In this document: in pieces, positions 6,369 through 62,206 of the stretch
How the letters are laid out: each line of letters opens with the position of its first letter
Position numbering within the stretch: position 1 is the first letter of the stretch
Assembly (NCBI GenBank): GCA_034423135.1
Contig: DAOUJC010000005.1
Location: 33,985-97,984 of the forward strand
Direction: 5' to 3'
Length of the DNA: 64,000 bases
Source of the DNA: Dehalococcoidia bacterium
GTDB taxonomy: Bacteria; Chloroflexota; Dehalococcoidia; Lucifugimonadales; UBA2985
The notes under the pieces: generated by a model
The model's database searches: none
What the model was told of the DNA's origin: nothing
The model's input: only the letters and a program-made list of their open reading frames with translations
Made by a program: the position numbers and the translations under genes

Positions 6369-6893
6369 CTACTCGCTAGCGGCTGCGTCCTCGCCCAGCG
6401 CGAACCGCTGGAACCGCCGGACGCGAATGTTCTCGCCAACACGCGCCATCACCTCGTTCACCACGTCCCTGATCGTCTGGGACGGGTCCTTGATGAAGGC
6501 CTGCTCCATGAGCAGTTGGCCTTCGGCGCCTGAGGTGTCGTCCTCCGATGCGGCCTCGCCGTCCACGTAGCGAGGCGACATGGCAGCAACCTGCATCGCA
6601 AGGTTGTGCGCCAGCTCCTTGAACTCCGGCGTCCTGGCAACGAAGTCAGTCTCGCAGTTCAACTCTACGATTGCGCCGACGCGGCTGCCTGCGTGGATGT
6701 AGCTGTCGACGACGCCTTCCAGCGTGTCCCTCGAAGACTTCTTGGCGGCAATCGACAAGCCCTTCTGTCTCAGAAGCTCCACCGCTTTCGCCATGTCACC
6801 GCCGGCCTCTTCCAGCGCGTTCTTGCAGTCCATAACGCCCGCGCTGGTCTGCTCTCTCAGGTCCTTGATTGCGTCAAGCGATACTCCCGGCAT
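6369..6893 (-). CDS. tsf: elongation factor Ts (short form)
   Basis: IKDLREQTSAGVMDCKNAL, ELNCETDFVA, ENIRVRRFQRF; 174 aa. Confidence 0.97.
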   Translation of the reverse strand: MPGVSLDAIKDLREQTSAGVMDCKNALEEAGGDMAKAVELLRQKGLSIAAKKSSRDTLEGVVDSYIHAGSRVGAIVELNCETDFVARTPEFKELAHNLAMQVAAMSPRYVDGEAASEDDTSGAEGQLLMEQAFIKDPSQTIRDVVNEVMARVGENIRVRRFQRFALGEDAAASE

Positions 6894-6895
6894 GG

Positions 6896-7816
6896 CTATG
6901 CTGTACCTTCCGGGGAGTCCTGGCTTGAGGTCCGCTGCACCGGCGCAGACCCGGGATCACCGGCCATTGCGCGAGCCAGCGCCTCCGGGTCCACTTCCAC
7001 CAGCGTCTCGCCGACCTCTTCTTCCCCTTCCTCGCCCGCCTCCAAGGCCTCCTCCGCCATCTCCAGTTCCTCTGCGGCGCTCGCAAGCTCTGCGCGCCTG
7101 CGCAGGCCCTCCATTACGGCATACGAGATGCGGGAGGTCACGAGGCTTATGGAGCGAATGGCGTCGTCATTGGCTGCGATGGGGTAGTCGACCAGGTCCG
7201 GATCTCCGTCCGTATCCACGAGCGCGACGATGGGTATGCCCATTCGCCGGCCCTCAGCCACGGCTATCTTCTCCCGGCCTATGTCCACCACGAAGAGCGC
7301 ACCGGGCAGCGTGGTCATCTCCTTCACGCCCCCGAAGTTGCGGTTCAGCCTCTGGACTTCGTCCTCCAGCTTCAGCGCCTCCTTCTTGGTGAGCAGGGCG
7401 AAGCCGCCCTTGGCGCGGCGCTCCTCCAACCGCACCAGGTAGTCAATGCGCGACTGTATGGACGGGAAGTTGGTGAGCGTACCGCCAAGCCAGCGATGCT
7501 TCACGTAGAACATGCCGCAGTTCCTGGCGGCGTTCTCGACGGAGTCCTGCGCCTGTCGCTTGGTGCCCACGAACAGGACGCTCTGACCGCCGGCCACAAT
7601 GTCCGAGATGAACTGTTGCGCACGCTTGAGCAGCGACATCGACTGCTGCAGGTCTATGATGTGAATGCCGTTGCGCTGCGAGAAAATGTACTGCTTCATG
7701 CGGGGGTGCCATCTCTGAGTCTGATGCCCAAAGTGGACCCCTGCTTCCAGCAGAGACTTCATGGTTAGTGCCTCTTGAGGTTGAGAGGCTACATCCCGCT
7801 CATCGGATACGACCAT
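6896..7816 (-). CDS. rpsB: 30S ribosomal protein S2
   Basis: LLEAGVHFGHQ, RWLGGTLTN, PIAANDDAIRSI; start at MVVSDERD (7816) or MKSLL (7762). Confidence 0.97.
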   Translation of the reverse strand: MVVSDERDVASQPQEALTMKSLLEAGVHFGHQTQRWHPRMKQYIFSQRNGIHIIDLQQSMSLLKRAQQFISDIVAGGQSVLFVGTKRQAQDSVENAARNCGMFYVKHRWLGGTLTNFPSIQSRIDYLVRLEERRAKGGFALLTKKEALKLEDEVQRLNRNFGGVKEMTTLPGALFVVDIGREKIAVAEGRRMGIPIVALVDTDGDPDLVDYPIAANDDAIRSISLVTSRISYAVMEGLRRRAELASAAEELEMAEEALEAGEEGEEEVGETLVEVDPEALARAMAGDPGSAPVQRTSSQDSPEGTA

Positions 7817-7992: not shown

Positions 7993-8340
7993 CTATGCTG
8001 ACGAGAAGGCCACCACCTTGTCCAGCCTCTGCGACAGGCGGTCCTCGGCAGCTTCCAAGTCGTACTGGCTTTGCAGCCCCATCCAGAATGCAGCAGAGTT
8101 TCCGAAGAATCGCGACAACAGCAGCGCGGTCTCCGCTGTAATAGAACGCCTGCCATTGACGATGGAGTGAATCCGGCGCGCGTCCACGCCAATGGCCTTG
8201 GCGAGCCGGTACTGAGTGATCTTCATCGGGAGGAGGAACTCCTCACTGAGTATCTCCCCCGGGTGAGCGGGGGCAAGTTTATTCTCACGGTGCGCTGGCT
8301 CGCTGATCACGGTCGTCTCCCTTCCCAACCTAGCGCTCAA
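7993..8340 (-). CDS. higA: HigA-family antitoxin (HTH)
   Basis: HPGEILSEEFL, ITAETALLLSRFFG, FWMGLQSQYDL. Confidence 0.92.
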   Translation of the reverse strand: MSARLGRETTVISEPAHRENKLAPAHPGEILSEEFLLPMKITQYRLAKAIGVDARRIHSIVNGRRSITAETALLLSRFFGNSAAFWMGLQSQYDLEAAEDRLSQRLDKVVAFSSA

Positions 8341-8618
8341 TGATAGTCTACGATCTCCACTTCATAAGCGTCGCTCCTGTCCCAGACGAAGCAGATGCGC
8401 CACTGGTCGTTGATGCGAATACTATACTGCCCCTGCCTATCACCTGAGAGGGCTTCCAGTCGGTTGCCCGGAGGCGTTCTCAGATCGTTCAAGTTGATGG
8501 CGTTGTTCAGCATCATCAATTTGCGTTGCGCCCGGCGTTGAATGTCCTCGTGGAATCTGCTGACACGCCGGCGGTTAGCTATGGACTGAGTATCCCTATC
8601 CCGGAAACTCCTTATCAC
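8337..8618 (-). CDS. higB: HigB (killer-protein type RelE) toxin
   Basis: IRSFRD..., DLRTPPGNRLEAL, YSIRINDQWRICF, EIVDYH; GTG start at 8618; directly upstream of higA. Confidence 0.92.
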   Translation of the reverse strand: MIRSFRDRDTQSIANRRRVSRFHEDIQRRAQRKLMMLNNAINLNDLRTPPGNRLEALSGDRQGQYSIRINDQWRICFVWDRSDAYEVEIVDYH

Positions 8619-8708
8619 GCACCAATAATAGTACGATGCACCATTAAGGTCAAATGGAGCGTTTCCCGGTCCTGACAATGCGGCGGAAAGGCAAACTCAC
8701 CCGCCCCC

Positions 8709-9557
8709 CTACCCCATGTCCAGGCTGATGTCCAGTGCTCGCACGGAGTGCGTCAGCGCGCCTACTGATATGAGGTCCACTCCTGTCTCCGCCACCGCTC
8801 GCACGGTGTCCAGCGTCACGCCGCCCGACGCCTCCAGCAGCGCCCGGCCGCCCGATATCTCGACCACGCGGCGCATCTCATCCGGCGACATGTTGTCCAG
8901 CAGCACCACGTCCGCGCCTCCCTCTATCGCCTCGATCGCCTCCTCCACCGTCTCCACCTCGATCTCCACCCGCAGCGTGTGCGGCGAGCGCTCCCTCGCA
9001 AGGTCCACTATCTCCGCCAGCCCAAGCTCACGCGCACGCAGCGCGGCAATGTGATTGTCCTTGATGAGAATGCCGTCAGCCAGGTTGTAGCGGTGGTTGT
9101 GGCCTCCACCCACTCGCACGGCGTACTTCTCCAGCTGTCGCAGGCCGGGCACCGTCTTGCGCGTATCGATGATGCGGGCCTTCGTGCCTTGGACAGCCTT
9201 CACGTATGCGGCCGTAGCCGTAGCGATGCCGCTGAGACGCTGCAGGAAGTTGAGGGCAACGCGCTCCGCCTTCAGAATGCCGGTCACGCTCCCTTCCAAG
9301 TCCGCAACCACGTCGCCGGGCGACACAGGTGCGCCGTCCTCGATGAGGACACGGCTCTGCGTCGATGGGTCGACCTGCCGGAACACCTCAAGCGCGACCT
9401 CCAGGCCCGCAACGACGCCGTCGGCCTTCACCACAACCGACGCTAGCCCGCGCGCGTCCGGCGGTATGAGCGAGTCCGTGGTGACGTCGCCGTGGCCGAG
9501 GTCCTCCACCAGAGCTCGCTCCACCATGTCACGTATCGAGGAAGTGATTTGCAGCAT
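8709..9557 (-). CDS. nadC: nicotinate-nucleotide diphosphorylase (carboxylating)
   Basis: EDLGHGDVTT, ERVALNFLQRLSGIAT, DTRKT, HRYNLADGILIKDNH, LEASGG. Confidence 0.97.
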   Translation of the reverse strand: MLQITSSIRDMVERALVEDLGHGDVTTDSLIPPDARGLASVVVKADGVVAGLEVALEVFRQVDPSTQSRVLIEDGAPVSPGDVVADLEGSVTGILKAERVALNFLQRLSGIATATAAYVKAVQGTKARIIDTRKTVPGLRQLEKYAVRVGGGHNHRYNLADGILIKDNHIAALRARELGLAEIVDLARERSPHTLRVEIEVETVEEAIEAIEGGADVVLLDNMSPDEMRRVVEISGGRALLEASGGVTLDTVRAVAETGVDLISVGALTHSVRALDISLDMG

Positions 9558-9586
9558 ATTAGTGAATTCTGAGCCTTACAATCTTG

Positions 9587-9841
9587 TCAGCGATACGCTT
9601 CACGCCGGTGGCGAGCGGCGAATACGGTTATCACCTGATTCGTGTCGTCGATAGTAAAGAGAACTCTGTAGTCGCCAACGCGAAGCCGATAACCATCCTG
9701 GCCTCTCAGCTTCCTGACATCGCCTCGTCGTGGGCCACTTCTCAGGGCTTCTAGTCCTCGCTCAACTCGTCCATGCATCCGTGGCGAAAGTCTGAGAAGA
9801 TCCGATTCAGCAGCTCTCGTAATACTGAGGCTATACCTCAC
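9587..9841 (-). CDS. RelE/ParE-family toxin
   Basis: 84 aa, VRKLRGQDGYRLRVGDYRVLFTIDD, RHRREAYR. Confidence 0.9.
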   Translation of the reverse strand: MRYSLSITRAAESDLLRLSPRMHGRVERGLEALRSGPRRGDVRKLRGQDGYRLRVGDYRVLFTIDDTNQVITVFAARHRREAYR

Positions 9842-10059
9842 TTCGCCCGCAATCGCTCTTCCCTCTCAGCCAGATACTCCTCAAACGGACGAGATTCATC
9901 ACCCTGGCGCTCTTTGATGAGAGCGATATCGATGACTTCTTCCTGGAGCTCGGGATCCTCCAGTATGCGCTCAATCACCATATCCCTCTCCTTCTTGGAG
10001 AGGGACTGCAAGGCCATTAGAAAGACCTCTGCCCTGTTTTCCTTGCCGTTAGCCTTCAT
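9838..10059 (-). CDS. putative antitoxin
   Basis: 73-aa acidic ORF overlapping the RelE start by 4 nt; ends ESRPFEEYLAER as many RelB-type partners do. Confidence 0.75.
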   Translation of the reverse strand: MKANGKENRAEVFLMALQSLSKKERDMVIERILEDPELQEEVIDIALIKERQGDESRPFEEYLAEREERLRAK

Positions 10060-10101
10060 TGCTGCTCCTGCTTGGTAGAACCTTGGTTACGTCACTGAGC
10101 T

Positions 10102-10320
10102 TCAGGTCTCGGTCCCGTTCTCCGGTTGCGAGTTCATTTGCAGGTTCAATTGGGCTATTTGGGCCTCAGCTCTCTCGAGTGTGGCGAATGCCTGCGCCAA
10201 CGTCTGCGACCTGGCGCTAGATGCAGTGAGCGGTGATTCGCCGGAGACAAGTCGGGAGTACTGAGCGGCGAGCCGCCCTACCTCACGCTCCAAATGCGTC
10301 ATTCTCTCCTCAAGAGTCAT
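10102..10320 (-). CDS. small coiled-coil hypothetical protein
   Basis: 72-aa ORF with ATG and G-rich RBS; heptad-like LEERMTHLEREV. Confidence 0.5.
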   Translation of the reverse strand: MTLEERMTHLEREVGRLAAQYSRLVSGESPLTASSARSQTLAQAFATLERAEAQIAQLNLQMNSQPENGTET

Positions 10321-10333
10321 AGTGCCCCACTCC

Positions 10334-10384
10334 CCCTACACCTCTTGCAGCATCCGCTCCAGCGCCACGCGTGCGTGGTGAGCC
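10334..10384 (-). repeat. direct-repeat copy of the last 51 bp of nadA (att-like)
   Basis: 48/51 identical to 11691-11741; encodes AHHARVALERMLQEV*. Confidence 0.9.
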
Positions 10385-10448
10385 AAACACACCCCCGGCT
10401 GGTGTCATCGCAACTCACCCCGCCGCCAGTGCAACCGGTCACGCACGA

Positions 10449-11039
10449 TCAGAGGCCGAATTCCCGCCGTACCTCGTCAGGAATCACCACAGTGCCGTCC
10501 TGCTTCACGTCTACGCCGTGAGCATATCGCAGCAGGTAAGTAGGATTCGCGTCCTCCATCCAGTAGAAGGCTTCGTGGCGGAAATCAATTGCCTCCCAAG
10601 TTGCATATAGTCTCGGCCCTCTAACCGGTGGGGCCAGTAGGAACCTCAGCACGGTGCCCTCCGCGGCCGGAAACGGCTTGAGGGAGCGTGCTTCACACCA
10701 CTCCTCAAATATGGGCCAATGCTCCGCTGACTGTGACAGAGCCAACTGTTGATCTGGATCTTCCGGATGCACCCTCCAATCGACGGGGAACCCGTGCTCG
10801 TCCAATTCCGGCGGTGGCGGACGCCGACCACGCCTGAGGACGTTGCGAAAGAAGGCGCTTCTCGCGTTGTTGAACAGGGCCACCGCCATCAGCAAGAGGG
10901 GCGCCCTCCTTAGAGTGTGTTCGACTCCACGCGGCGGATTGTCTGAATCGGCATCGAGTGTCAGATATTCAGAGTCGCTCCTATACTCGCGCCACGGAGG
11001 CTCCGGTTCCTTTGGGTGGAGTCGGAAGATTCTCAACAT
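10449..11039 (-). CDS. hypothetical protein with tyrosine-recombinase core-binding (SAM-like) domain resemblance
   Basis: WPIFEEWCEARSLKPFPAAEGTVLRFL ... AIDFRH...NPT resembles the Cre-type N-terminal domain; no catalytic domain. Confidence 0.55.
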   Translation of the reverse strand: MLRIFRLHPKEPEPPWREYRSDSEYLTLDADSDNPPRGVEHTLRRAPLLLMAVALFNNARSAFFRNVLRRGRRPPPPELDEHGFPVDWRVHPEDPDQQLALSQSAEHWPIFEEWCEARSLKPFPAAEGTVLRFLLAPPVRGPRLYATWEAIDFRHEAFYWMEDANPTYLLRYAHGVDVKQDGTVVIPDEVRREFGL

Positions 11040-11045
11040 ACACCT

Positions 11046-11648
11046 CTACTGCGAACAGTATACGGTGCCATCCTGCCAGAATTGACCTGTTAGGTTTTCC
11101 GAGATTCCGGAGAAGGTTCTCCCAAAGGCGATTAGCTGATGATCACCCTCCACCTTGTAGTTATACCACGTTCCTGCTTCGCAGTCCCAGTTGACGTACG
11201 CTGTCATCTTTGTGACCGTGCAAGTCGGAGCACCAGCCGCAACTGGACATTGCGAGTACTTGGATGCCACCAATTTCCAGCCTGACCAACTCGAACGGTA
11301 CAGCCTCTGCCAAATGGTCCACACGCTACCTCTTGGAGGATCCAATAGGCAGGCCGTGTGTGACTTGGCTTGGATCCAGCCAGGCCCTGGGTCTATAGTC
11401 GATTCGTGCGGTCTGTCTGACTTCGCCTTGCATCCCCACGGATTCACGGAGGAGTACGCCGCTGTTCCGTCACCTGCCGCCGCCCCACCGGAATCAAGCA
11501 ATTCAGCCTCGGTCTCTAGCGGTTCCTCGATATCTTGCACAGGTATCGCATCCTTGCTGGCTCCTCCCGATACGATCGCGACTGTCAATAGCAACACGAC
11601 CAACAGCGTCTTTCGAGTCCTCTGAACAAACCATGAAGTCGCGGACAT
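11046..11648 (-). CDS. secreted cysteine-containing hypothetical protein
   Basis: Signal-like RKTLLVVLLLTVAIVSGGA, acidic linker, C-terminal domain with 6 Cys. Confidence 0.6.
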   Translation of the reverse strand: MSATSWFVQRTRKTLLVVLLLTVAIVSGGASKDAIPVQDIEEPLETEAELLDSGGAAAGDGTAAYSSVNPWGCKAKSDRPHESTIDPGPGWIQAKSHTACLLDPPRGSVWTIWQRLYRSSWSGWKLVASKYSQCPVAAGAPTCTVTKMTAYVNWDCEAGTWYNYKVEGDHQLIAFGRTFSGISENLTGQFWQDGTVYCSQ

Positions 11649-11690
11649 CGCCCACCTCCTGTACTGGCTGTTCTAAACCGACTTCAGCTG

Positions 11691-11741
11691 CCCTACACCT
11701 CTTGCAGCATCCGCGCAAGCGCCACGCGGGCGTGGTGAGCC
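11691..11741 (-). repeat. nadA 3' end, second copy of the 51-bp direct repeat
   Basis: Matches 10334-10384 with 3 mismatches. Confidence 0.9.
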
Positions 11742-12898
11742 GTCTCGTCGTCGACCGTGATGCGGTTGATCACCTCGCCGTCCAGTAGCCGCTCCAGCGA
11801 CCACAGCAGGTACGCCGGGTGCGTCCGGTACATCGTCGAGCACGGGCACACCACCGAGTCCAGGCAGAACACCAGCTTATCCGGGTGCTCCTGCGCCAGC
11901 CGGTTCACCAGGCTGATCTCCGTGCCCACGGCCCACTTGCTGCCGGAAGGCGCCTCGTTGATGGTCTTGATGATGAACTCCGTCGAGCCGTCGCAGTCGG
12001 CCAGGTCCACCACCTCCCTCACGCACTCCGGGTGTACTATCACGTTGATGTCCGGGTACGCGGCCCTGGCCTTGTTGATCTGCGCAACGCTGAAGCGCGT
12101 GTGCACCGAGCAGTGGCCCTGCCACAGCACGATCTTGGACTCTCTCAGCTTCTCGGGCGTGTGGCCCCCCAGGGGCTTGAACGGGTTCCACACCACCATC
12201 TCCTCCGCCGGTATGCCCAGCTTGAGGCCGGTGTTGCGGCCCAGGTGCTGGTCCGGGAAGAACACCACGCGCTCGCCCTGCTCGAAGGCCCAGCGCATGA
12301 CCGCAGGAGCGTTCGACGACGTGCACACGATGCCGTTGTTTCGACCGCACAGCGCCTTGATGGCCGCCGTGGAGTTCATGTACGTGATGGGTATGATGCC
12401 GCCCTCGCCGAGCACCTCCGTCAGGTCGTCCCAGCAGTCCAGCACGTCGTCCGTGCGAGCCATGTCCGACATGGAGCAGCCGGCCGTGATGTTAGGCAGG
12501 ATGACCTGCTGGTGCGACGCGCTGAGTATGTCCGCCGTCTCCGCCATGAAGTGTACGCCGCAGAAGACGATGAACTCCGCCTGCTCCTGCGCCGCCGCCT
12601 GCTGCGACAGCTTCAGCGAGTCGCCCCGGAAGTCGGCGAACTGGATGATCTCGTCGCGCTGGTAGTGGTGGCCCAGGACCACCAGCCGGTCCGCCAGTAT
12701 GTCCCTGGCGTATCGGATCCGGCGCGTCAGCTCTTCGCCGCCCATGTGGTGGTATTCGGCCGGTATGCTCTGCCAGCTGACCACCGCGGCGAACTCCTCC
12801 GCCAGAGGTTTGACCTCCAGTGTCTCATCGGTACGGCAGAACGCCGACTGCTCGACCTCCGTAAGAGGAATATATGGGGTCTTCTCGGTGGTAGTCAT
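11693..12898 (-). CDS. nadA: quinolinate synthase A
   Basis: LGHHYQRDE, VFCGVHFMAETA, AGCSMSDMA, GHCSVH, HPEC, CPCSTM (three Fe-S Cys). Confidence 0.96.
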   Translation of the reverse strand: MTTTEKTPYIPLTEVEQSAFCRTDETLEVKPLAEEFAAVVSWQSIPAEYHHMGGEELTRRIRYARDILADRLVVLGHHYQRDEIIQFADFRGDSLKLSQQAAAQEQAEFIVFCGVHFMAETADILSASHQQVILPNITAGCSMSDMARTDDVLDCWDDLTEVLGEGGIIPITYMNSTAAIKALCGRNNGIVCTSSNAPAVMRWAFEQGERVVFFPDQHLGRNTGLKLGIPAEEMVVWNPFKPLGGHTPEKLRESKIVLWQGHCSVHTRFSVAQINKARAAYPDINVIVHPECVREVVDLADCDGSTEFIIKTINEAPSGSKWAVGTEISLVNRLAQEHPDKLVFCLDSVVCPCSTMYRTHPAYLLWSLERLLDGEVINRITVDDETAHHARVALARMLQEV

Positions 12899-12902
12899 GT
12901 GG

Positions 12903-14231
12903 TCACCTCACGCCGCTCTTGACTTGCTCTGCGACCTCGCCCCTCAGCGACCAAGGGCCGGTCTTTTCGACTCGCACGTCAACAACCTCTCCCGTCAGGT
13001 CCTGTTCGTGAGAGAAGTATACCAGTTTATTGCCGCGGGTGCGTCCCTGCCACCCGTCTCGATTGCGTCCCTCCACCAGCACCGGCTCGACGCGGCCAGC
13101 CAGGCCTGCGTTGATGCTCTCGGCGATGCCTTCCTGCAGCTGCTCGATTGCCTGCACGCGTGCCCGCTTCACCTCGTGGGGCACGTCGTCGTCCATGCGG
13201 CGGTGCGCGATGGTGCCCTCGCGGTCGGAGTAGGCCGCCACGTGCACCTTGTCGAATCTCACGTCGCGAATGAGGTTCAGCGTAGACCGGAACTCGTCGT
13301 CAGTCTCGCCCGGGAAGCCGACTATCACGTCCGTGCTCATCGAGACGCCCGGGATGGCGTCGCGGATGCGGTCCACCAGCCGCCGGTAGTCGTCCGAGGC
13401 GTAGTTGCGGCGCATGTCCCGCAGCACGCGGTCGTCGCCCGCCTGGAACGGCAGGTTGACGTGCTCGCACACCTTGGGCAGTGAGGCCACCGCATCGATG
13501 ATTCGATCGCTCATGTAGTTGGGATGCGAGGTCAGGAAGCGTATGCGCTCCAGGCCGTCAACCTCGTGAATCGACTCGAAGAGGTCGGCCAGGTCGGGGC
13601 TGTCCGACAGGTCGTGGCCGTAGGCATCGACCGTCTGGCCCAGCAGCGTGACCTCGCGGACGCCCCGGCGCACCAGCAGCTCAACCTCTCGTGTCACGTC
13701 GTCGACGGGGCGGCTCTTCTGCCGGCCCCGGCGGTACGGGATGATGCAGAACGAGCAGAACTCGTCGCAGCCGTGGATGACCGGCACGTGCGTGGCGATG
13801 CTCGGTCGGACGGGCGCCAGGTCGCGCAGACAGCCGTCCACGTCCACACCGAGGCGGCCGCCGATCAGTTCGATGAGCGGCTCGTACTGCTGGGGACGCA
13901 TGAACACGTCCACGTACGGGAATCGCTGCTGGAGCTGTGCCGAGCTTGGGCCCACCATGCACCCCATGAGCGCAAAAATGCGGTCGGGCTTCGACCGCAT
14001 CACTGGCTTCAGCGAGGTTATCATGCCGACCACCTTGTCCTCGGCGCTCTGGCGCACCACGCAGCTGTTGAGCACGACGACGTCGGCGTCCTGAGGCCGG
14101 GCGGTTTCCTCGAGGCCCATGCCTTCGAGCGCGCCGGCGAGCCTTTCGGAGTCGGCTGTGTTCATCTGGCAGCCGATGGTCCAGATATGATAGCTGGAGG
14201 GGCTAGACTGCGTCTGTGGCATCGTGCGCAT
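12903..14231 (-). CDS. miaB: tRNA (N6-isopentenyl adenosine(37)-C2)-methylthiotransferase
   Basis: IWTIGCQMNTADSE, NSCVVRQSAEDK, CDEFCSFC radical-SAM motif, C-terminal TRAM. Confidence 0.93.
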   Translation of the reverse strand: MRTMPQTQSSPSSYHIWTIGCQMNTADSERLAGALEGMGLEETARPQDADVVVLNSCVVRQSAEDKVVGMITSLKPVMRSKPDRIFALMGCMVGPSSAQLQQRFPYVDVFMRPQQYEPLIELIGGRLGVDVDGCLRDLAPVRPSIATHVPVIHGCDEFCSFCIIPYRRGRQKSRPVDDVTREVELLVRRGVREVTLLGQTVDAYGHDLSDSPDLADLFESIHEVDGLERIRFLTSHPNYMSDRIIDAVASLPKVCEHVNLPFQAGDDRVLRDMRRNYASDDYRRLVDRIRDAIPGVSMSTDVIVGFPGETDDEFRSTLNLIRDVRFDKVHVAAYSDREGTIAHRRMDDDVPHEVKRARVQAIEQLQEGIAESINAGLAGRVEPVLVEGRNRDGWQGRTRGNKLVYFSHEQDLTGEVVDVRVEKTGPWSLRGEVAEQVKSGVR

Positions 14232-14239
14232 ACCCCGGT

Positions 14240-14331
14240 TGGCGGAGGGAATGGGATTCGAACCCATGAGAGAGCTTTCGCCCCCTAACCGCTTAGCAGG
14301 CGGCCGCACTAGGCCTCTATGCGATCCCTCC
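14240..14331 (-). tRNA. tRNA-Ser(GCT)
   Basis: Reverse complement GGAGGGATCGCATAG...CCGC-CTGCTAA-GCGG...GGTTCGAATCCCATTCCCTCCGCCA; long variable arm, encoded CCA. Confidence 0.95.
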
Positions 14332-14430
14332 TGCCTATTGACAATACATCATATCAAATTGTGAGGAGGGGGGCAAGGGGCGCGAAATTCTCTGACAGAA
14401 GTGCAAAGTGGATGGGGCGCAAGGTCGCAA

Positions 14431-14679
14431 CTACTTCTTGTACTGCTTCTCCAAGCGCTCCAAGCCATTGCGTCCAAGTCCGGTCTGCTTGGGGCCGAGG
14501 ATTTGGCTGAGTGTCGTCTGAGGGATATTCTCGCGCGTATCCTTCACCGTGGTGAATCGCGTCCGGCCTTCCTCCTGCTTGCGCATCCAGACACCGTGGG
14601 GGTTGCTGCGCACTCTCACCCAGCCATCGGCTACGAGAAGCCGAATGAGCTCCTTGCCCGTCACCGGCCTACCCAGCAA
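14431..14679 (-). CDS. hicA: HicA-family toxin
   Basis: 82 aa, GKELIRLLVADGW...SNPHG, IPQTTLSQIL. Confidence 0.75.
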   Translation of the reverse strand: MLGRPVTGKELIRLLVADGWVRVRSNPHGVWMRKQEEGRTRFTTVKDTRENIPQTTLSQILGPKQTGLGRNGLERLEKQYKK

Positions 14680-15028
14680 CTTGCGACGGGGGGAGTTTCA
14701 CGATGCGAGGTTGAAAGTATGGACCGCTCGACACGTCGAATATGTCCACCCAGTTAGCGACCACTGCGGCCTCTATGCTTCTCCGCAGCCGTTCAAGATC
14801 CAGCTCGGCGGGATTCATTTCAATCCCGTTCTCCGCGAAGAAGCGCTCACGCTCTCCGGCTTCTTCCAGGAGATTCAGGTGTTCTTCCACCAATGCCTCC
14901 AGATCCGCCGTGACTCTCTCGAAGTTCCTACCGAATGTACTCGTGCCTAACTCGATACAAACGCCTACCCACTTACCTTCCTCCCTTGTATACCGGAGCG
15001 TTAGTGTCACACTACCTTCTACGGTCAC
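14669..15028 (-). CDS. hicB: HicB-like antitoxin
   Basis: EEGKWVGVCIELGTSTFG...LEALVEEHL, overlaps the hicA start. Confidence 0.7.
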   Translation of the reverse strand: MTVEGSVTLTLRYTREEGKWVGVCIELGTSTFGRNFERVTADLEALVEEHLNLLEEAGERERFFAENGIEMNPAELDLERLRRSIEAAVVANWVDIFDVSSGPYFQPRIVKLPPSQVAG

Positions 15029-15199
15029 GGCTCTCCCTTCACACTCGCCTTGGCGATGGGTGTCCCCGCCCTATGATCGCCCGGCCTGGCAGGGCTGGGC
15101 AGTTGAATCTTATCACGGCGACCTCATGATAACCAATCTCTGCAATCTGTAGGCTGCCGACCGCTGGGTCAAAAGCAGCCGGGCTCCCAGTGACTTACA

Positions 15200-17587
15200 T
15201 TACCAGGTAGAGGAGCCGTACAACCTGTCCCAGACTTCCTGCATCTTATTCTCTGCACCTGGCGGTGTGTGTCTCAAGAATGCCTCATATATGTCCCTAT
15301 CGCTATTGGGAACCTGACTAGCCAAGCTCGTGCGCTGAAGATCTCCCAAGGCTGCCACTACAGCCTCGAATCCAACCTCCCTCTCCAAGCTGAGCAGCAG
15401 GTGCAAGCCAATCTTAAACTTGCAGAAGGGCGGTATTCCTGGGCTGTCGACGAGGGCCTCCACAATCTGCAAGACCCCTTGGGACGTACAGTCATCCCTG
15501 ACCAGGTTTGTCACGCGGGTGTATACGTCCTGGTCAGCGTAGCCCTTCCACTTTTGTATATACTCACGGACGTACTCTGCGCCCGCCTCTCTAAACCACA
15601 GGGGACCTATTAGGTTATCGAAATAGGAATGGGCTACTTCGTGATTAATGACGTCCCGCATGCCTCTGTCGGATAGATTATCGACTATCTCGATACGTTG
15701 CCCCCCGTCGAAAGACTTCCCAGCGAAAGTAGGAGATCTGCCGTCATAGCCGTACTTCTGCACCGTGGCAACAACCAGTTCACTATGGGGGAACGGCTCC
15801 TCCATGAGCCGCTCCGCTCCCCTAGCGGCATCTTCAAGCCAATCCATGGCACCCTCCCAAGAGTTCATGCTGCCCTCAACCATCCACAGTTTGACCTCAC
15901 CTGCAAGCGGGAGTTCAATTGTCCTCAACTTAATCCTTCCCGCGTTTAGTTTCGGCCATTCTCGATAAGAGCCGTATTCACTACTCAGGCCGATAACATG
16001 AACCCTCTCCATGTCCGTCAGCCCGTCGACGAACCAGTCCGCAGCCATCATCTCTTCGAGGAGCTTGCGCCTCGTTTCCTGTTCCTCCAAGCCATATCCA
16101 AAGCTGCGCATCAGCATATTCTCAATGGGACTATACGGGCCGTCAGCCTCGTCCACTAGAAGGCTTAGGAGTTCAAAGGGATCGCGGTCAAGGGTATCGG
16201 CCACAGCCAAGATATTTCCCAATCCACGCATCTGCTGGACATCAGTGTAGGTTATGCCGTCCGTCACCCAAGCTTGGTCAAGGAGCCAGTTTCCCGCGAC
16301 GTCATAGTCTCTAATTGCATTAATTGCGCCGCGTTCGCTCTCCGTAATCCCATCTGCCACCCAAGGCAGTTCGATGAGCCTGACGCTCAGCTCCGGGGTA
16401 AACTCCGCCAAGTGTCTTATGATGCCGAGTGCGCCATGCTCGACATCTGTGATGCCATCTTGTAGCCAAGTGAAATGTACCAGCATGACTCCAGAGCCGC
16501 GATTGAAATGCTCCAGGTCTCTGATTTGAGTGACCGTATTAAATTCGGGCCCAGTCAAGTCGTCGAAGGCCCACTCTAGCTCGACGATACCAGGGAGCAC
16601 ATCCCGGTACGTTTCGGCAACGGAAGCCAAGACGTTTACCGTCCACGCCTCATCCCAATTGATGCCGTCGGTGAACCACCCCGCATTGAAGACTTGCTCA
16701 GCGAGGCGACTGTCGAGATCGTCCTCCGATCCGACAAAACTGCCAATGCCGTTGACTGCACTCAGTTCGTGCTCGTCCAAACCGTCAATGAACCAGGGAA
16801 GAGCAGCGATGTACCTAGCCGACTCAATGTCTTTGGACGCTACTCTCTCGAAGGCTCGGAGGTCAGTCAGCTCTTCACTGGTAACGACGCTCGCTAGCCA
16901 GGTAAAGGCAATTAGTTGACTGACCAGGTCAGTATCCATGTCAGCGATGCCCTGAAGACTCCGCAACAGGTCCACTTCTACTTGAGTTGCTTCGTCTACA
17001 ACCCAAGGCAATTGGGCAACTTCATGGCCGGCATCAGGATCGTAAAGGAAGATATCAATCAGTATCCCAACCGCATCGGCTGAAGCAGCTCCCTCGGGAT
17101 CCTCGAACCATGGAATCACTTGAGCCAGCTCAGAGGCAGCCACATCTCGGGGATTTGGTGTCGCCGTTGGAACTGGAGTGGGTGTGGCGGTAGGAGAAGG
17201 CACAGGAGTGGGCGTAGATGTCGGCGCGGGTGTGCTGGTGGGTGCGGGGGTAGGGGAGAGTGTGGGGGTGTTGGCGAGCGTTGGAGTAGGTGTGGGTGGG
17301 GGAGTGCTGGTGAGAGTTGGGGTAGGTGCGGGTGCGAGCGTGCTGGTCGGTAGTGGAACGGGAGTTGGGGTTCGCGTGGGAGTAGGCGAACTGGTAGGTA
17401 TAGGTACGGCGGAAGCTGTCGGCGCGTAGGCTGGTTCCGGATCCTGACCCCCCGGAGTTGAATCTGTCACTTGGGCGCCGTCTTCACATGCCATCGACGA
17501 CATTGCAATCATTAGGCACAGCGCTCCTAGATGCACTCCCCAACGGAGGTGCCCGCTCAGCCCGCTCGACGAAACGGAGGTCAGCAA
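15200..17587 (-). CDS. large repeat-containing lipoprotein with C-terminal HExxH metallopeptidase-like domain
   Basis: Lipobox-like SSMAC, Pro/Thr stalk, ~10 W-x-x-D-G-[IL]-T-x-x-E repeats, NHEVAH...WFREAGAEY; start uncertain (ORF opens at 17686). Confidence 0.75.
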
Positions 17588-17742
17588 TCCATTAACCCCC
17601 CCTAGTGTGGAATCACAGGAATTGCGTAGGAATTGGCTTGGAATTTCTTGGAATGATACGTGGGCGATTTGGCGCCTCAATCCCAAGAGAAGGATGCCTG
17701 AGGGACTATAGGATTCTCTTGACTAAGTGGAGCAACGTAGGC

Positions 17743-17826
17743 TGGCGGAGGGAATGGGATTCGAACCCAATAGAGAGTTTTCACCCCTAAGCAGGCGACC
17801 GCACTAGGCCTCTATGCGATCCCTCC
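17743..17826 (-). pseudogene. decayed duplicate of tRNA-Ser(GCT)
   Basis: Both ends match 14240-14331, but ~8 nt of the anticodon arm are missing and the variable arm is mutated. Confidence 0.85.
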
Positions 17827-17919
17827 TGCCTGTTGGCTAAACATCATAACAATACGGGGCCAGCGTCACAAGTGGCGATTACAGCGGAGAGAGAAGTGCG
17901 TTGCGCTGTAGAGTACCCC

Positions 17920-28483: not shown

Positions 28484-30514
28484 ATGAATCAGGACACTAT
28501 CGGTCTGGACTATCTCGAACGAGCCTTTGATGAAGGGCATGCCGAGATTACAGGCGATGGGCGGAACCAGCGCATCCGCTATATCGCCGCCGGCCGCTCA
28601 GAGCGGTGGAGCGACCCGGAGGAGAGAGTGCGGGCCGAGCTGTGGGCGGAGCTCATCTACAGGTACGAATACTCACCCGAACGAATAGGCTTCGAGGTCA
28701 ACGTTCCACGCCGGACTCCAAACGACTACGCCGACCTGGTCATCTACGAAGACGACGACCTGAAGTCACCCTACATGGTCTTTGAGTGCAAGCGCCCCGA
28801 CGTATCCGACGCCGCGTTTGGCCAGTCCATAGAACAGGCCTGCGGCAACCGAGCCAGCCTTGGCGCCAAGTATTGCGGCGCGGTGGCCGGTCTCACTCGC
28901 CGCCTGCTGCGCTTTGACCGCTACCCGCCAGCTGAGCGGGAGAGAAACCACATGACCGATATTCCCGTTCGCTACGGGAGCCCCCCATCCTGGCGCTTCT
29001 TGAAGAAAGTCCAAGGCCGTGATCTGACGACTGTTTCGCGGGAAGAGTTGCGGGCCGCCATCCGCAAGTGCCACCAGACCCTCTGGGAGGGCGGCAGGCG
29101 CAGTGCCATCGCCGCCTTTGGCGAGTTCTGCAAGCTGGTCTTCATCAAGCATCGTGATGAGAAGGATCTGGACCGGAAGGAAGGCCAGCATTATGAATTC
29201 CAGCGAAAGGACGGGGAAACTGCCCCCGACCTGGCCAGACGCATAACGATTCTGTATGAGAGCGAGAAGAGCAGGGAGCCGGACGTCTTTACCGAGAGCA
29301 TCAACGTAGATCCGCCCATTCTGGCGCAGTGCGTGGAACACCTGGAAGGCATTTCCCTTGAGCACACCGAGCTTGACACCAAAGGAGTGGCCTTCGAGGA
29401 ATTCATGGGCAGCTTCTTCAAGGGTGACTTCGGGCAGTACTTCACTCCCCGGGAGTTGATCGCTTTCTGCGTGGAAATGCTTGACCCGAAGCGCACCGAC
29501 CTAGTGCTCGACCCGGCCTGCGGCTCCGGCGGATTCCTGCTCTACGCAATGGACCACGTTCGCCGGGAGGCAGATCAAAGGTACTCTCCAGGCGGCGAAC
29601 AGCACCTCCTGTACTGGCACGACTTCGCCCAGAAGAACCTCTTTGGCATTGAGATAAACGATGAACTGGCCCGGGTCGCCAAGATGAACATGATCATTCA
29701 CGACGACGGCCATACCAACATCGTTGGCCACGACGCCCTGGACTTCTCTGAGAACATTCGCAGCAAGAATAGCGGCGTCGACCTACGCAAATTCGATCTC
29801 ATCCTCACCAACCCGCCCTTCGGCGCAGTCGTAAAGCGCACGGAGAAGGGGGACGGCTACCTAGAGCAGTTCGACTTGAGGCATTACCTGGGCAAGAGCT
29901 ATCCAGTATATTCCGACATGACGGGAGAAGACGGCGACTCCAGCGCGAAGACGGGCGCAAGAGCAGTAAGAGCACGGGCCAGCATCAAGACCGAGCTCCT
30001 GTTCCTGGAGCGGGTTCACTCCTTCCTGAAGCCCGGCACGGGCCGGGCTGCCGTGGTGGTGCCGGACGGCATCCTGACCAACTCATCGCTTCAGGGCGTG
30101 AGGCATTGGCTGCTCGAGAACTTCCAGCTTCTGGCGGTGGTCAGCCTGCCCCAGTTCGCCTTCAGCCACTACGACGCCGGTGTGAAGGCCAGCATAATAT
30201 TCCTGCGCCGCTTAGCCGATGGCGAAACAGTCTCAGACAATGAAGCCATATTCATGGCCCTGGCCGAGAACATCGGGTACGACGCCACCGGGCGCAAGAC
30301 ATTTGACGTTTCCGTGGAGCGGGAGGAGCCGGGCGTGGAGAAGGTTGAGCGGCACAGCTGCGACCTGTTCGACTACCGCGTATATTACGAACCCGTCTCC
30401 ACGAATCTCTTTGAAACCAATTGGAGCGAGCGCCGTAGGGAAACCATACCAGGCACCGGCATAGTGGCCCAGTGGCAGGCCTTCCAGCGGGAACCGACAC
30501 CTTTTTTAGTGTAG
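28484..30514 (+). CDS. restriction-modification protein: HsdR-N-like nuclease domain fused to N6-adenine methyltransferase
   Basis: N-terminal PEERVR...ADLVIY...FECKR nuclease motif; GQYFTPR, DPACGSGGFL, NPPFG. Confidence 0.88.
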   Translation: MNQDTIGLDYLERAFDEGHAEITGDGRNQRIRYIAAGRSERWSDPEERVRAELWAELIYRYEYSPERIGFEVNVPRRTPNDYADLVIYEDDDLKSPYMVFECKRPDVSDAAFGQSIEQACGNRASLGAKYCGAVAGLTRRLLRFDRYPPAERERNHMTDIPVRYGSPPSWRFLKKVQGRDLTTVSREELRAAIRKCHQTLWEGGRRSAIAAFGEFCKLVFIKHRDEKDLDRKEGQHYEFQRKDGETAPDLARRITILYESEKSREPDVFTESINVDPPILAQCVEHLEGISLEHTELDTKGVAFEEFMGSFFKGDFGQYFTPRELIAFCVEMLDPKRTDLVLDPACGSGGFLLYAMDHVRREADQRYSPGGEQHLLYWHDFAQKNLFGIEINDELARVAKMNMIIHDDGHTNIVGHDALDFSENIRSKNSGVDLRKFDLILTNPPFGAVVKRTEKGDGYLEQFDLRHYLGKSYPVYSDMTGEDGDSSAKTGARAVRARASIKTELLFLERVHSFLKPGTGRAAVVVPDGILTNSSLQGVRHWLLENFQLLAVVSLPQFAFSHYDAGVKASIIFLRRLADGETVSDNEAIFMALAENIGYDATGRKTFDVSVEREEPGVEKVERHSCDLFDYRVYYEPVSTNLFETNWSERRRETIPGTGIVAQWQAFQREPTPFLV

Positions 30515-31914
30515 ACCCCGCCAGACTGGCAAAGCCGGAAAGCTTTGCGGTGAAGCGGGGCAAAGTTGTCGGAAGGTTAGATACATGGTTCAATCATCCC
30601 CGGTATGAGTTGCTGCGCGCCAGATTGGACGCTTCAATAGTCAAAACGACCGAGTTGGACGGTTTCCTGTGGTCAATAGCCGGCGGTGCAACGCCAAAAC
30701 TAAGTGATGCTTCTCTCTACACCGATTCCGGGATTAAGTTCCTACGCATCCTCAACGTAGAAGATGGCGAGATTATTGAGCAGGATATCAAATACATCAC
30801 CGATGCGGTTCATCAAGAGGAACTTGGGCGTTCCCAGCTTGAAGCTGGCGACGTGCTTATCACAATTACGGGGCGTGTAGGTTCAGCCGCAGTAATTCGC
30901 GAAGAGCATCTTCCAGCCAACATCAATCAGCACATTGCTCGACTGAGGATTGATTTGAAACGCTGCAGGCCGGAGTTCCTCAGTGAATGGTTGAACTGCC
31001 CCGCTGGGCAACAGCTGTCCAATCGCTCTGTCTCTGGAGGCACACGCCCCGCTCTTGACTATGGAGCTGTTCGCAGCATCCTAGTGCCGTTGCCTGATAC
31101 GCTGGAAGCGCAAGACAAGCTATTGGTCGCGATGGATGCCTCCCGTGCGAAGCGCAAGGCAAAGCTAGCTGAGGCAATCGCACTACTGGCAAGTCTAGAT
31201 GATTTCGTGCTGGACGCGCTAGGTATTGCACCACCGGAGAAGGACTCCAGACGTGCGTTTGCAGTAACGCTTGGCCAGTCACGCACCCAGGGACAGCTTA
31301 ATGCGGACTTCTACCATCCGGAGCGTATTCGGACCTTAGACGAATTGAACAATGCGGGAATGCATACGGAACTGACGCCACTTGCTAAAGTCGTGAATTT
31401 TGAGCGAGCACAGATCAAGTCACCGGATGAGAATTACCTGAGTCTAGCGCACGTGGAAAGCCATACCGGCGAACTGACTGACTCCCAGGATAAGGCGTCA
31501 GGCAATGCCTTTATGTTCCAAGTCGATGATGTTCTATTTGCTCGATTGCGTCCCTACCTTAACAAGGTATATCACGCTGAAATGAATGGCACTTGCTCAA
31601 CGGAGTTCCACGTCCTTCGGGTCAAGGATCGGAATACTCTGCTACCTGAGTATCTCAGCACCATCCTACGCAGCCGTTTGATACTGGCTCAAACTGTCCA
31701 CATGATGACCGGTAACACCCACCCGCGTCTAGTCAACGCTCACGTAGAGAGCCTTCGAATCCCTATTCCCAAGGTGAATGTTCAAAAGACCATCGCAGTG
31801 GACGTTGCGGTTCGGCGCGAGGAGGCACGCCGTTTGCGCGCCGAAGCGGAGGCGGGCTGGCAGGAGGCCAAGCGGTGGTTCGAGGAGCAACTGTTGGGAG
31901 CGGATTCGCCATGA
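30472..31914 (+). CDS. hsdS: restriction-modification specificity subunit (two TRDs)
   Basis: GGATP...ILNV, ITGRVG, NINQH; second TRD FARLRPYLNKV, CSTEF, GNTHPR; helical spacers; start uncertain. Confidence 0.85.
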   Translation: MAGLPAGTDTFFSVDPARLAKPESFAVKRGKVVGRLDTWFNHPRYELLRARLDASIVKTTELDGFLWSIAGGATPKLSDASLYTDSGIKFLRILNVEDGEIIEQDIKYITDAVHQEELGRSQLEAGDVLITITGRVGSAAVIREEHLPANINQHIARLRIDLKRCRPEFLSEWLNCPAGQQLSNRSVSGGTRPALDYGAVRSILVPLPDTLEAQDKLLVAMDASRAKRKAKLAEAIALLASLDDFVLDALGIAPPEKDSRRAFAVTLGQSRTQGQLNADFYHPERIRTLDELNNAGMHTELTPLAKVVNFERAQIKSPDENYLSLAHVESHTGELTDSQDKASGNAFMFQVDDVLFARLRPYLNKVYHAEMNGTCSTEFHVLRVKDRNTLLPEYLSTILRSRLILAQTVHMMTGNTHPRLVNAHVESLRIPIPKVNVQKTIAVDVAVRREEARRLRAEAEAGWQEAKRWFEEQLLGADSP

Positions 31915-32741
31915 CATTTGAGATTCTCATTTCCTGTCACATGCCACCGAACGATGGTCTTGCGGGCATAAGCGAGATGTTGGAGGATGCGCTGAATCAG
32001 GCCTTGGAGTATAGCCCAATAGACTTTGATGAGAGCATGATCCAGATTCACTGCCAGCGGCCGCTAAACGAGGCACCGGCCGACAGAGGCAACCTCCTAG
32101 TCGGTTTCTCTCTGGAACTGCCGGAAGATGACGCTGGAATCAAGTCCGTGGTTGACGGCTTTGTTGGGGCCCTAAGGGACAGGTCAGAAGTCATGCATCT
32201 AGTGCGGTTTGAAGATCCACTCCTTCAAGCCGAACTATCTAAGTGGGCCGCCGAGATTTTCTCGCTGGAGATGAAACTGCGCCGAGTGCTGTCTTTCATT
32301 TATCTGCACGCGTATCAGGTCAGCAATCCCTTCGAGCTACTTCAAGAAGAGCAGGTTCAAATACCACAAGGTGTGAAACCACAAGAGACACAAATGAACA
32401 ACCTTAGCGAGAACGAGTTTTTTCACTTGACGTTCAGCCAGTACATAGGCCTAAACCAGCGCCGCCAAATAGACCTCCGCCACATAGTAGGCATAATCCT
32501 TGATTCGGAGCAATACGGCGATTTACGTCAAGAACTCATGCGGTCTCCAGTATCAGACGGGCGCGATACCGAACTCATGAATAACTTGCAGCAACACTTG
32601 AATGCTATTGAGCGGATGCGCAACTGTGTGGCCCATAACAGAAGACCCAGCGAGGGAATAAGACAAGATTACTCGTTTAATCGCCCTCGCCTGGAAGAAC
32701 TACTGGATAGCTATTTGGCAAGCCTGGCTATTCAACATTAG
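31911..32741 (+). CDS. HEPN-domain protein (putative RNase)
   Basis: LEMKLRRVL helix and C-terminal RNCVAH (Rx4H); ATGA overlap with hsdS. Confidence 0.65.
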   Translation: MTFEILISCHMPPNDGLAGISEMLEDALNQALEYSPIDFDESMIQIHCQRPLNEAPADRGNLLVGFSLELPEDDAGIKSVVDGFVGALRDRSEVMHLVRFEDPLLQAELSKWAAEIFSLEMKLRRVLSFIYLHAYQVSNPFELLQEEQVQIPQGVKPQETQMNNLSENEFFHLTFSQYIGLNQRRQIDLRHIVGIILDSEQYGDLRQELMRSPVSDGRDTELMNNLQQHLNAIERMRNCVAHNRRPSEGIRQDYSFNRPRLEELLDSYLASLAIQH

Positions 32742-56757: not shown

Positions 56758-57046
56758 CGCTGTGTCGCCTCTCCTCAGGTGAGCCGCGGACGGCCGCGGC
56801 GCGGGCTGGACATGCCGGTATAGATAGCGCCGGAAGGCACTGGAGAGGCGCCCTAAGGCCGGGCGGCTTGGGGAGCGCGACGGGGTTGGAACCGGGGTAA
56901 GGCGGGTCGTTTCGTCGGTCACAGAGAATATAACAGGGGGCTAGTTTGGGGGGTACAAGAGGGTTGCGACGGGAATTTTGGGAGACTTTTGGAGGGCTGT
57001 TGTTTGGGCCCCTTCGTCCCACTATAATCGCCGCGAAGGAGCCGGA

Positions 57047-61949: not shown

Positions 61950-62035
61950 CTCCGCGTCCTGGCATCCAAAAGACTTCAGTCGACTGTTTCTCGTATCGTC
62001 GGCTGGGCAACAGGTTATGTGGGTTCGTCCCACCC

Positions 62036-62110
62036 TGGTGGAGACAGGGAGTTCGAACCCCCAACTTCGGCGATGCGAACGCAGCGCTCTCCCAGTTGAG
62101 CTATAGCCCC
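62036..62110 (-). tRNA. tRNA-Ala(CGC), degenerate/possibly pseudogene
   Basis: Reverse complement GGGGCTATAGCTCAACTGGGAGAGCGCTGCG-TTCGCAT-CGCCG...GGTTCGAACTCCCTGTCTCCACCA; 75 nt with acceptor- and anticodon-stem mismatches. Confidence 0.7.
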
Positions 62111-62206
62111 GCGAACACGTCACTCGCGCTGTGCAGTCGATTGTATCGGCGCGGGCGTTGAGCGTCAATTCGCACGGAAGGGGCGATTACGTATCGATGT
62201 CCCACC

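Follow-up and report, generated by a model that had tools for sequence, protein, structure and literature searches.

Background

A second copy of a gene's last codons, left standing beyond two foreign-looking genes, raises the question of how those genes arrived: by a site-specific insertion that rebuilt the end of the interrupted gene, or by a recombination between alleles that left a scar. Such an arrangement is present at the 3' end of nadA (quinolinate synthase A) in a 64,000-nucleotide stretch from a Dehalococcoidia bacterium (Chloroflexota; GenBank assembly GCA_034423135.1, contig DAOUJC010000005.1, positions 33,985 to 97,984 of the forward strand). This whole stretch is referred to here as the window, and its own numbering is used unless a related contig is named. 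Two open reading frames (ORFs), ORF200 and ORF196, lie there between the intact nadA terminus and a second, dead one. An earlier note on this DNA regarded the nadA 3' end as the attachment site (attB) of a tiny or decayed integrative element with no integrase of its own. In the present analysis, ORF200 and ORF196 are found to be a conserved two-gene module of 1.3 kb under purifying selection. We tentatively favour, with a little less than even confidence, an origin as a tiny non-autonomous integrative module that itself supplies the new end of its target gene; the alternative of a recombination scar in a hotspot is only slightly less likely.

The duplicated nadA terminus

A repeat search recovered a 51-nt direct repeat with 48 identical positions at 10334-10384 and 11691-11741, the two copies being 1357 nt apart from start to start and enclosing 1306 nt of DNA. 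The mismatches fall at three position pairs (10358/11715, 10360/11717 and 10372/11729). Together with translation of both copies, the search confirms that the C-terminus of nadA is duplicated with its stop codon, as first noticed in the earlier note. The chance expectation of such a match in 64 kb is ~1e-14 by our estimate, and the runner-up repeats in the 6-kb region reach at most 36 nt at 72-74% identity.

The right copy (11691-11741, minus strand; attL-like) is the functional end of nadA and consists of 46 sense nucleotides, the stop codon and 2 nt further; the last 16 codons of the gene fall within it. Its translation is AHHARVALARMLQEV followed by the stop (ending ...ALARMLQEV). The nadA gene (11693-12898, minus strand; Pfam NadA, E 2.8e-98) is intact and ends in this copy, which bears out the view that it has been regenerated. 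The left copy (10334-10384, minus strand; attR-like) translates as AHHARVALERMLQEV followed by the stop, keeps the ancestral ending ...ALERMLQEV and has an in-frame stop codon immediately upstream, and is therefore a dead fragment. Two derived changes (CTT GCG) are found in the right copy, including the replacement of E by A in the LERML motif, which is invariant in six relatives. The presence of the unusual changes in the functional terminus, and not in the dead copy, fits a terminus imported from outside.

With a metagenome-type assembly and a repeat inside a conserved gene, one may suspect that the arrangement is an artefact of assembly or stems from a chimera of two strains, and the earlier note had itself named an artefact as a possible refutation. 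However, an independent Logan contig (L083, run SRR13587050, 3738 nt) is 100% identical over its 3738 nt to window 8391-12128, across both copies. The two copies agree without a mismatch over 24 nt at most, and the sequence across the left junction (10384/10385) is unique, something that the collapse of an assembly graph cannot produce. Repeat-induced misassembly is therefore very unlikely, and the probability of an artefact or chimera is taken as close to negligible.

A conserved module of two genes

ORF200 (11046-11648) and ORF196 (10449-11039) are both encoded on the minus strand. Their GC content at third codon positions (GC3) is 0.61-0.65, as against 0.82-0.91 in the core genes nadC, nadA and miaB, and their composition is therefore foreign-like; ORF72, a small ORF beyond the dead terminus, lies within 0.61-0.67. 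Neither of the two genes has a match in Pfam, NCBIfam, PADLOC or PHROGs, which together with the low GC3 agrees with their earlier description as non-housekeeping. Pfam Phage_integrase, Resolvase, Recombinase and transposase domains are absent from both, the viral-contig and plasmid collections searched contained no match to either, and a sequence search of the PDB gave nothing meaningful.

The synonymous divergence of ORF200 and ORF196 between lineages is 2-3 times that of the adjoining nadA. The ratio of non-synonymous to synonymous substitution rates (dN/dS) is 0.20 for ORF200 and 0.15-0.3 between lineages for ORF196, indicating purifying selection on both, and ORF196 is thus not a pseudogene fragment. 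ORF200 has an N-terminal membrane helix or signal anchor, a disordered linker and a Cys-containing all-beta domain (Ig-like sandwich). Its AlphaFold2 (AF2) model has predicted local distance difference test (pLDDT) values of 75-90 over residues 62-198, and a Foldseek search with it returned only generic Ig-like beta-sandwich matches, with no toxin or enzyme fold among them. Judged from the model, ORF200 is probably a membrane-anchored or exported Ig-like beta-sandwich protein. Three homologues are known, one of which, 59% identical, lies directly after nadA in the related contig L168.

ORF196 and the core-binding domain of tyrosine recombinases

Tyrosine recombinases require both a core-binding and a catalytic domain (PMC8138268). 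Alignment of the ORF196 family with the integrase P0128 (PF00589 and PF02899) by hhalign matched residues 95-190 to residues 31-132 with a probability of 96% and an E-value of 4.7e-9. The catalytic domain of P0128 begins at residue 129, and ORF196 stops at about that point (residue 196). The AF2 model of ORF196 is confident over residues 75-196, and its top PDB matches in Foldseek are nearly all Cre, singly weak (E about 1), yet consistent. When four integrases were compared by phmmer with all the six-frame ORFs of the window, ORF196 was the sole match. ORF196 is thus, by hhalign and Foldseek, a stand-alone homologue of the core-binding (SAM-like) domain, and it lacks the catalytic domain with its RKHRH pentad and tyrosine nucleophile.

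The family as a whole has the same character. ORF196 has 21 close homologues, and a search of 1.84 billion representative proteins with the family profile gave 144 matches, 63 of them below 1e-10; 60 of these 63 clusters represent short proteins (77-338 aa), with three exceptions. None of the larger members scanned reaches the Pfam Phage_integrase (PF00589) threshold, and faint, sub-threshold integrase-related signals were seen among them only in two outliers of ~1000 aa. The weaker profile matches include bona fide tyrosine recombinases, aligned through their N-terminal SAM-like (core-binding) domain. Some representatives of 282-333 aa are matched along two stretches, and these proteins may have arisen by fusion of tandem copies. 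At least two members are encoded on a single contig of 2.31 Mb. As a conserved protein family, that of ORF196 has not been described before, and neither Pfam nor NCBIfam has a model for it. The term 'decayed' in the earlier note finds no support, as all 63 clusters below 1e-10 lack the catalytic domain and the family is under purifying selection. The statement that the element has no integrase of its own holds for catalysis, since no catalytic recombinase is found in the 64 kb, but it passes over the core-binding-domain homology of ORF196.

The nadA-nadC interval in related Chloroflexota

All the genes of the region from miaB (12903-14309) to a HigB/HigA pair (7993-8678) lie on the minus strand. 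Beyond the dead nadA terminus follow ORF72 (10102-10320), encoding a small coiled-coil protein and starting 13 nt past the dead stop, an antitoxin gene (9838-10059) paired with a ParE toxin gene (9587-9841; Pfam ParE_toxin, E 8e-13), and nadC (quinolinate phosphoribosyltransferase, 8709-9557; Pfam QRPTase_N and QRPTase_C), which is the far border of a variable interval. Among GTDB genomes and JGI metagenomes, nadA is matched best by metagenome-assembled genomes of Chloroflexota, Dehalococcoidia or SAR202, at only 67-72% amino acid identity. In several distant relatives miaB, nadA and nadC are adjacent, with a nadA-nadC gap of about 50-130 nt; all of the 2.1 kb that separate nadA from nadC in the window are thus specific to its lineage.

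Six related Chloroflexota contigs (L081, L084, L085, L171, L172 and L173), picked through their ORF196 homologue itself, carry that homologue between nadA and nadC, with no ORF200 beside it and no repeat; their nadA genes are 81-92% identical to that of the window at the nucleotide level. L173 is the closest relative by flank identity (90.7% nucleotide identity over miaB-nadA), and ORF200 is reduced in it to the last ~19 nt ahead of ORF196. In L168 the ORF200 homologue follows nadA immediately, in one collinear alignment with the window. In all the relatives an antitoxin-ParE operon lies downstream of the ORF196 homologue, separated from it by ~40 nt and a conserved promoter of the extended -10 type (TGGTACAAT); this junction is broken only in the window. 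A second nadA terminus or a remnant of the nadA end was sought in seven related loci and none was found. The repeat-free ORF196 relatives and the conserved promoter-antitoxin junction thus give an impression of long residence rather than of repeated integration. Sliding-window identity along miaB-nadA revealed no recombination breakpoint.

The position of the dead copy is clarified by L081, whose nadA product is 94% identical to that of the window. A coiled-coil ORF with an ORF72-like start begins there 11 nt after the real nadA stop. The dead copy and the start of ORF72 (10384-10288) align with this junction of the nadA end and the next ORF at 75% identity over 97 nt, and the N-terminus of ORF72 is 44% identical to that of its L081 relative over 34 residues (E 5e-5). 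The dead copy is therefore the trace of an old nadA/ORF72 junction. The earlier note had proposed a search for relatives with an empty site. L081 goes part of the way, having nadA followed directly by an ORF72 relative, but it holds ORF196 copies further downstream, and the precise empty allele of the source strain was not found. At the nucleotide level, the antitoxin-ParE genes of the window reach only 70-72% identity with their counterparts in L173 and L081, whereas those two share 83.5%; the nadA genes of the three are equally far apart.

Several further observations were made in the interval. Tandem copies of ORF196, diverged or recent, occur in two to four lineages and resemble orphan-gene arrays. 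The pair in L081 (9208-10675) has 760-nt units and is recent (91% nucleotide identity), while those in L084 (10001-11224) and L171 (7332-8555) have units of 624-627 nt and are old and diverged (about 75%). The ORF after nadA in L081 (8258-8707; 188 aa, the relative of ORF72) contains four to five tandem repeats of 90 nt (30 aa) at 97% identity. One to three ParE-type pairs are present in the nadA-nadC interval of the relatives, and in the window toxin-antitoxin pairs stand on either side of nadC, HigB/HigA-like downstream (7993-8678) and antitoxin/ParE upstream (9587-10059). A spacer of 64 nt (10385-10448, minus strand) separates the ORF196 stop from the dead nadA terminus and includes the unique junction 10384/10385. 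By eye it looked like a degenerate version of the promoter spacer (TGGTACAAT) of the relatives, but the idea was dropped, as the similarity to the conserved spacer between the ORF196 homologue, promoter and antitoxin was not significant in a shuffle test. A promoter and terminator scan of the region gave nothing beyond shuffled sequences, and Rfam gave no match in the region or in the contigs L166, L167 and L169.

The module at other loci

Pairs of ORF200 and ORF196 homologues were identified at three loci that are unrelated to nadA, on L166, L167 (two pairs) and L169. On L166, which comes from another bacterium, the module lies downstream of a Peptidase_M55 gene and stands between the two copies of a 55-nt direct repeat (84-89% identical), of which the first comprises the last 48 nt of the M55 gene, the stop codon and 4 nt beyond, and the second lies 26 nt past the stop of the ORF196 homologue. 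Measured from the end of the stop codon, the duplicated block runs from 49 nt before to 2 nt after in the window and from 51 nt before to 4 nt after in L166, and ORF196 adjoins the attR-like copy in both. The DNA between the L166 repeats, leaving out an insert derived from an insertion sequence (IS), is about 1340 nt long (1306 nt in the window); the ORF200 homologue of L166 is frameshifted. The same gene pair with the same bracketing at an unrelated gene makes a repeatable gene-end-regenerating insertion, now with a second example, plausible.

The IS-derived insert of L166 (9111-9925, ~815 bp) lies between the M55 end and the ORF200 homologue, has perfect 19-nt terminal inverted repeats (CTAGGTAGTGTTGACATTT) and contains a DUF4096 fragment. 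The L167 contig begins inside a module. A conserved AT-rich non-coding element of 82-92 nt, which may be a promoter or leader, stands upstream of the ORF200-ORF196 units of L167 (1915-1996 and 4347-4428) and L169 (7140-7225), contigs that come from related samples; it has no Rfam match. In L169, 26 nt from the 5' end of a neighbouring histidine-kinase gene are also duplicated in inverted orientation upstream of the module (6893-6918 and 7067-7092), and there is a short fragment resembling the YWHTGAC region of the ORF196 homologue downstream of the intact gene (8692-8712). Two candidates for a core site, a CGTGG..CAAT motif common to the L166 repeat and the relatives' promoter and a 6-bp palindrome in the 51-mer, were rejected as unremarkable in GC-rich DNA or explained by the extended -10 promoter.

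Origin of the arrangement

If the islet is an integrative module, the two repeat copies would be the attL-like and attR-like junctions left after recombination had placed a 1.3-kb module within the final 16 codons of nadA. Such a module would consist of about 50 nt replacing the terminus of the target, ORF200 and ORF196. Its insertion would leave nadA intact and displace the old terminus, together with ORF72, the antitoxin and ParE, by 1357 nt. The event would be a conservative site-specific recombination, for which a resident element or a host tyrosine recombinase may supply the catalytic recombinase in trans, while ORF196 may bind the junction sequence as a site-binding factor. This scheme predicts an empty junction of the form ...GACGACGAGACGGCTCACCACGC...GAGGTGTAGGGGGAGTGGGGCACTATGACTCTT, in which nadA is joined to ORF72, and a circle junction of the form ...CCAGCCGGGGGTGTGTTTGGCTCACCACGC...GAGGTGTAGGGCAGCTGAAGTCGG, in which the ORF196 spacer is joined to the 51-mer and ORF200. 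Several observations support it: the end of nadA is duplicated and the gene regenerated, the dead copy preserves the ancestral junction, the module recurs at L166 with the same geometry, and ORF196, which adjoins the attR-like copy in both cases, is homologous to an integrase domain. The foreign-like GC3 of the two genes, the purifying selection on them, their high synonymous divergence relative to nadA and the odd changes in the functional terminus also speak for it. A wider proposal, that Chloroflexota harbour a family of ~1.3-kb modules in which ORF196 steers a recombinase encoded elsewhere (host Xer-like or a resident integrase) to the last ~16 codons of a gene and brings its own ~50-nt terminus, would imply a split tyrosine-recombinase system and a new minimal class of mobile element; we consider it unlikely at present.

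A number of observations weigh against an integrative module. No catalytic recombinase was detected in the 64-kb window by Pfam searches of the low-GC3 and other ORFs, and the catalytic domain is absent from the close relatives of ORF196 among the 1.84 billion representatives. A recombinase-type core site is not recognisable in the 51-nt repeat, which offers a 6-bp palindrome only. At nadA-nadC, the ORF196 relatives of six contigs stand without a nadA remnant and are followed by the conserved promoter-antitoxin junction. The recurrence of the geometry rests on two cases, and no direct repeat flanks the module in L169. To serve two different target sequences, the module would depend on two trans-acting integrases or on ORF196 as a determinant of specificity, and we know of no precedent for either.

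The nadA 3' end as an attB site is accordingly only partly upheld: insertion there has become plausible with the second example at L166, but recombination of alleles in a hotspot explains the window almost equally well. The latter explanation, to which we give a substantial probability that is clearly short of even, is allele shuffling in the nadA-nadC interval by homology-facilitated illegitimate recombination (HFIR) or displacement. Two alleles of the population, nadA-ORF200-ORF196-... and nadA-ORF72-antitoxin-ParE-nadC, would have been combined when incoming DNA underwent homologous exchange in a flanking core gene and an illegitimate join at 10384/10385; the nadA terminus of the other allele would then be the scar, and its length of 51 nt mechanistically meaningless. 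HFIR has been proposed for the orphan immunity arrays of the Vibrio cholerae type VI secretion system (T6SS) and hypothesised for the strings of orphaned 3' regions at Rhs loci (PMC5361080), and both provide a precedent. The locus has the organisation of such arrays, with a conserved anchor gene, alternative downstream modules and a 3' fragment of the anchor ahead of the displaced genes. Close relatives differ strongly in this interval, whereas miaB, nadA and nadC are collinear in them, and both types of junction exist in relatives: nadA followed by an ORF200 homologue (L168) or by a 3' remnant of ORF200 (L173), and nadA followed by an ORF72 homologue (L081). The junction of ORF196 homologue, promoter and antitoxin, conserved in all the relatives, is broken in the window alone, and the outlying antitoxin-ParE genes of the window (70-72% as against 83.5%), with nadA equidistant, suggest that the right side comes from a different allele. 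The repeat copies differ by 6%, which matches the divergence of nadA between lineages, no recombinase is present, and a second islet of the window (14.3-17.8 kb), also without an integrase, is bracketed by a whole duplicated tRNA-Ser gene with upstream sequence. However, HFIR does not predict the scar geometry of L166 (51 and 55 nt with the same stop-codon offsets), a coincidence of a few percent by rough estimate. It also leaves no role for an integrase-domain protein, and the first arrival of the module at L166, L167 and L169 needs another mechanism.

Two further explanations were weighed. Corresponding to the 'decayed' option of the earlier note, a classical island with a full integrase may have inserted at the 3' end of nadA and then been reduced there to a remnant like a cis-mobilisable element (CIME), in the manner of the streptococcal integrative and conjugative elements (ICEs), integrative and mobilisable elements (IMEs) and CIMEs at fda, rpsI, rpmG and rplL (PMC7563491), where att-like repeats likewise surround cargo at the 3' end of a housekeeping gene; the integrase-related ORF beside one repeat would suit this origin. 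Against it, ORF196 is no recent truncation but belongs to a uniformly short, conserved family under purifying selection with no full-length close relative, and its stop lies only 64 nt from the repeat. The L166 repeats abut the same minimal two genes, to which two independent decays are hardly expected to lead, and neither in tandem nor in any relative is an ICE or IME found, so that decay in place is improbable. A duplication made in place, through tandem duplication or template switching with gene replacement, or through a transposition-type insertion duplicating ~50 nt of target, is more improbable still, although tandem duplications of ORF196 units are common at the locus (L081, L084 and L171) and a staggered cut of ruler-like spacing would fit the similar lengths (51 and 55 nt). 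There is neither a transposase nor a terminal inverted repeat, the tandem route requires several additional replacement steps, and most of the derived changes are in the functional copy instead of the useless one. We know of no bacterial element that produces target duplications of ~50 bp.

Comparison with known systems

Among described elements, the islet behaves most like a CIME or a gene-end-targeting island, and it departs from both wherever a catalytic recombinase or a parent ICE or IME is called for. With integrative elements in general it shares the direct repeats containing the 3' end of the target and the regenerated gene, and it differs from them in having no recombinase of its own with a catalytic domain, either in the islet genes or in the 64-kb window. 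It does not resemble a transposon or insertion sequence, as it has no transposase domain and no inverted repeats at its ends, and the duplication is 51 nt long.

CIMEs, with reported sizes of 1.2-13 kb, are deletion products of an ICE or IME that occupied the same site, and they are moved by accretion with such an element (PMC7563491). The islet is like the Streptococcus CIMEs at fda, rpsI, rpmG and rplL in its small size, repeats with the target 3' end, regenerated gene, content of cargo only and lack of a functional recombinase. Unlike them, it has no visible parent, occurs with the same minimal content at two target genes and keeps a conserved integrase homologue devoid of the catalytic domain. 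An origin by deletion would agree with the att-like repeats and the absence of a functional recombinase, but no sign of a larger parent element is seen, and no related locus shows an ICE or IME signature at nadA that would point to accretion.

Tyrosine integrases insert genomic islands into the 3' ends of tRNA, tmRNA or protein genes, an example being the ssrA islands of Dehalococcoides, which belongs to the same phylum (PMC3146451). Islands of this type resemble the islet in the replacement 3' end, the intact gene with a partial copy downstream and the foreign composition. They carry a full integrase with core-binding and catalytic domains (PMC8138268), whereas the islet has the core-binding homologue only. 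Displacement arrays such as Rhs C-terminal tips, orphan modules of contact-dependent inhibition (CDI) systems and the effector-immunity arrays of the V. cholerae T6SS, for which an origin by HFIR has been proposed (PMC5361080), likewise have a conserved upstream anchor, alternative downstream modules and an old module shifted downstream. ORF196, single or in diverged tandem arrays and often without ORF200, is also reminiscent of their orphan immunity genes. In contrast to these arrays, the islet is anchored by a housekeeping gene of biosynthesis that belongs to no toxin system, neither a toxin nor an immunity function can be recognised, and the scar geometry recurs at another gene.

Integrative mobile elements exploiting Xer (IMEX) and pdif modules are small and non-autonomous and are moved by the host XerC/XerD at dif-like sites. 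The islet would share with them the small size and the reliance on a recombinase encoded elsewhere; its repeats are GC-rich coding sequences of unrelated genes and have no dif-like organisation, which sets it apart.

If a site-specific insertion is the true origin, the islet would be among the smallest gene-carrying integrative elements known, and the choice of target by a stand-alone core-binding protein would be separable from catalysis in tyrosine recombination, with a bearing on the spread of integrase-less islets and on the engineering of recombinase specificity. If the repeat is a recombination scar, the locus would be a clean example, outside toxin loci, of the turnover of a core-gene hotspot (nadA-nadC in uncultured Chloroflexota) by displacement, and a warning that a duplicated gene terminus alone is no proof of an att site.

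Other features of the window

The second islet bracketed by a duplicated flanking gene (14383-17739) lies on the far side of miaB. Here a whole tRNA-Ser(gct) gene with about 25-50 nt of upstream sequence is duplicated (14237-14382 and 17740-17877); the copy beside miaB is intact (Rfam 52.5 bits), and the distal one is 8 nt short in the variable arm (29.3 bits). The islet has a GC content of about 0.55 and contains HicA/HicB-like genes and an ORF of 828 aa, for which no family match and only a partial PDB sequence match (8zvk) were obtained; it has no integrase.

Two restriction-modification islands of low GC3 are also present. In the island at 28484-32741, an N6 methylase and an HsdR N-terminal domain form one fusion protein, which is accompanied by a type I S subunit and an ORF of 288 aa. 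That at 59728-62168 encodes an NgoMIV-type endonuclease and a methylase beside tRNA-Ala(cgc) (62037-62111); the long methylase ORF call overlaps the tRNA gene and is probably over-extended. The gene dnaA is located on the minus strand at 55369-56922, and the window is therefore probably near the replication origin.

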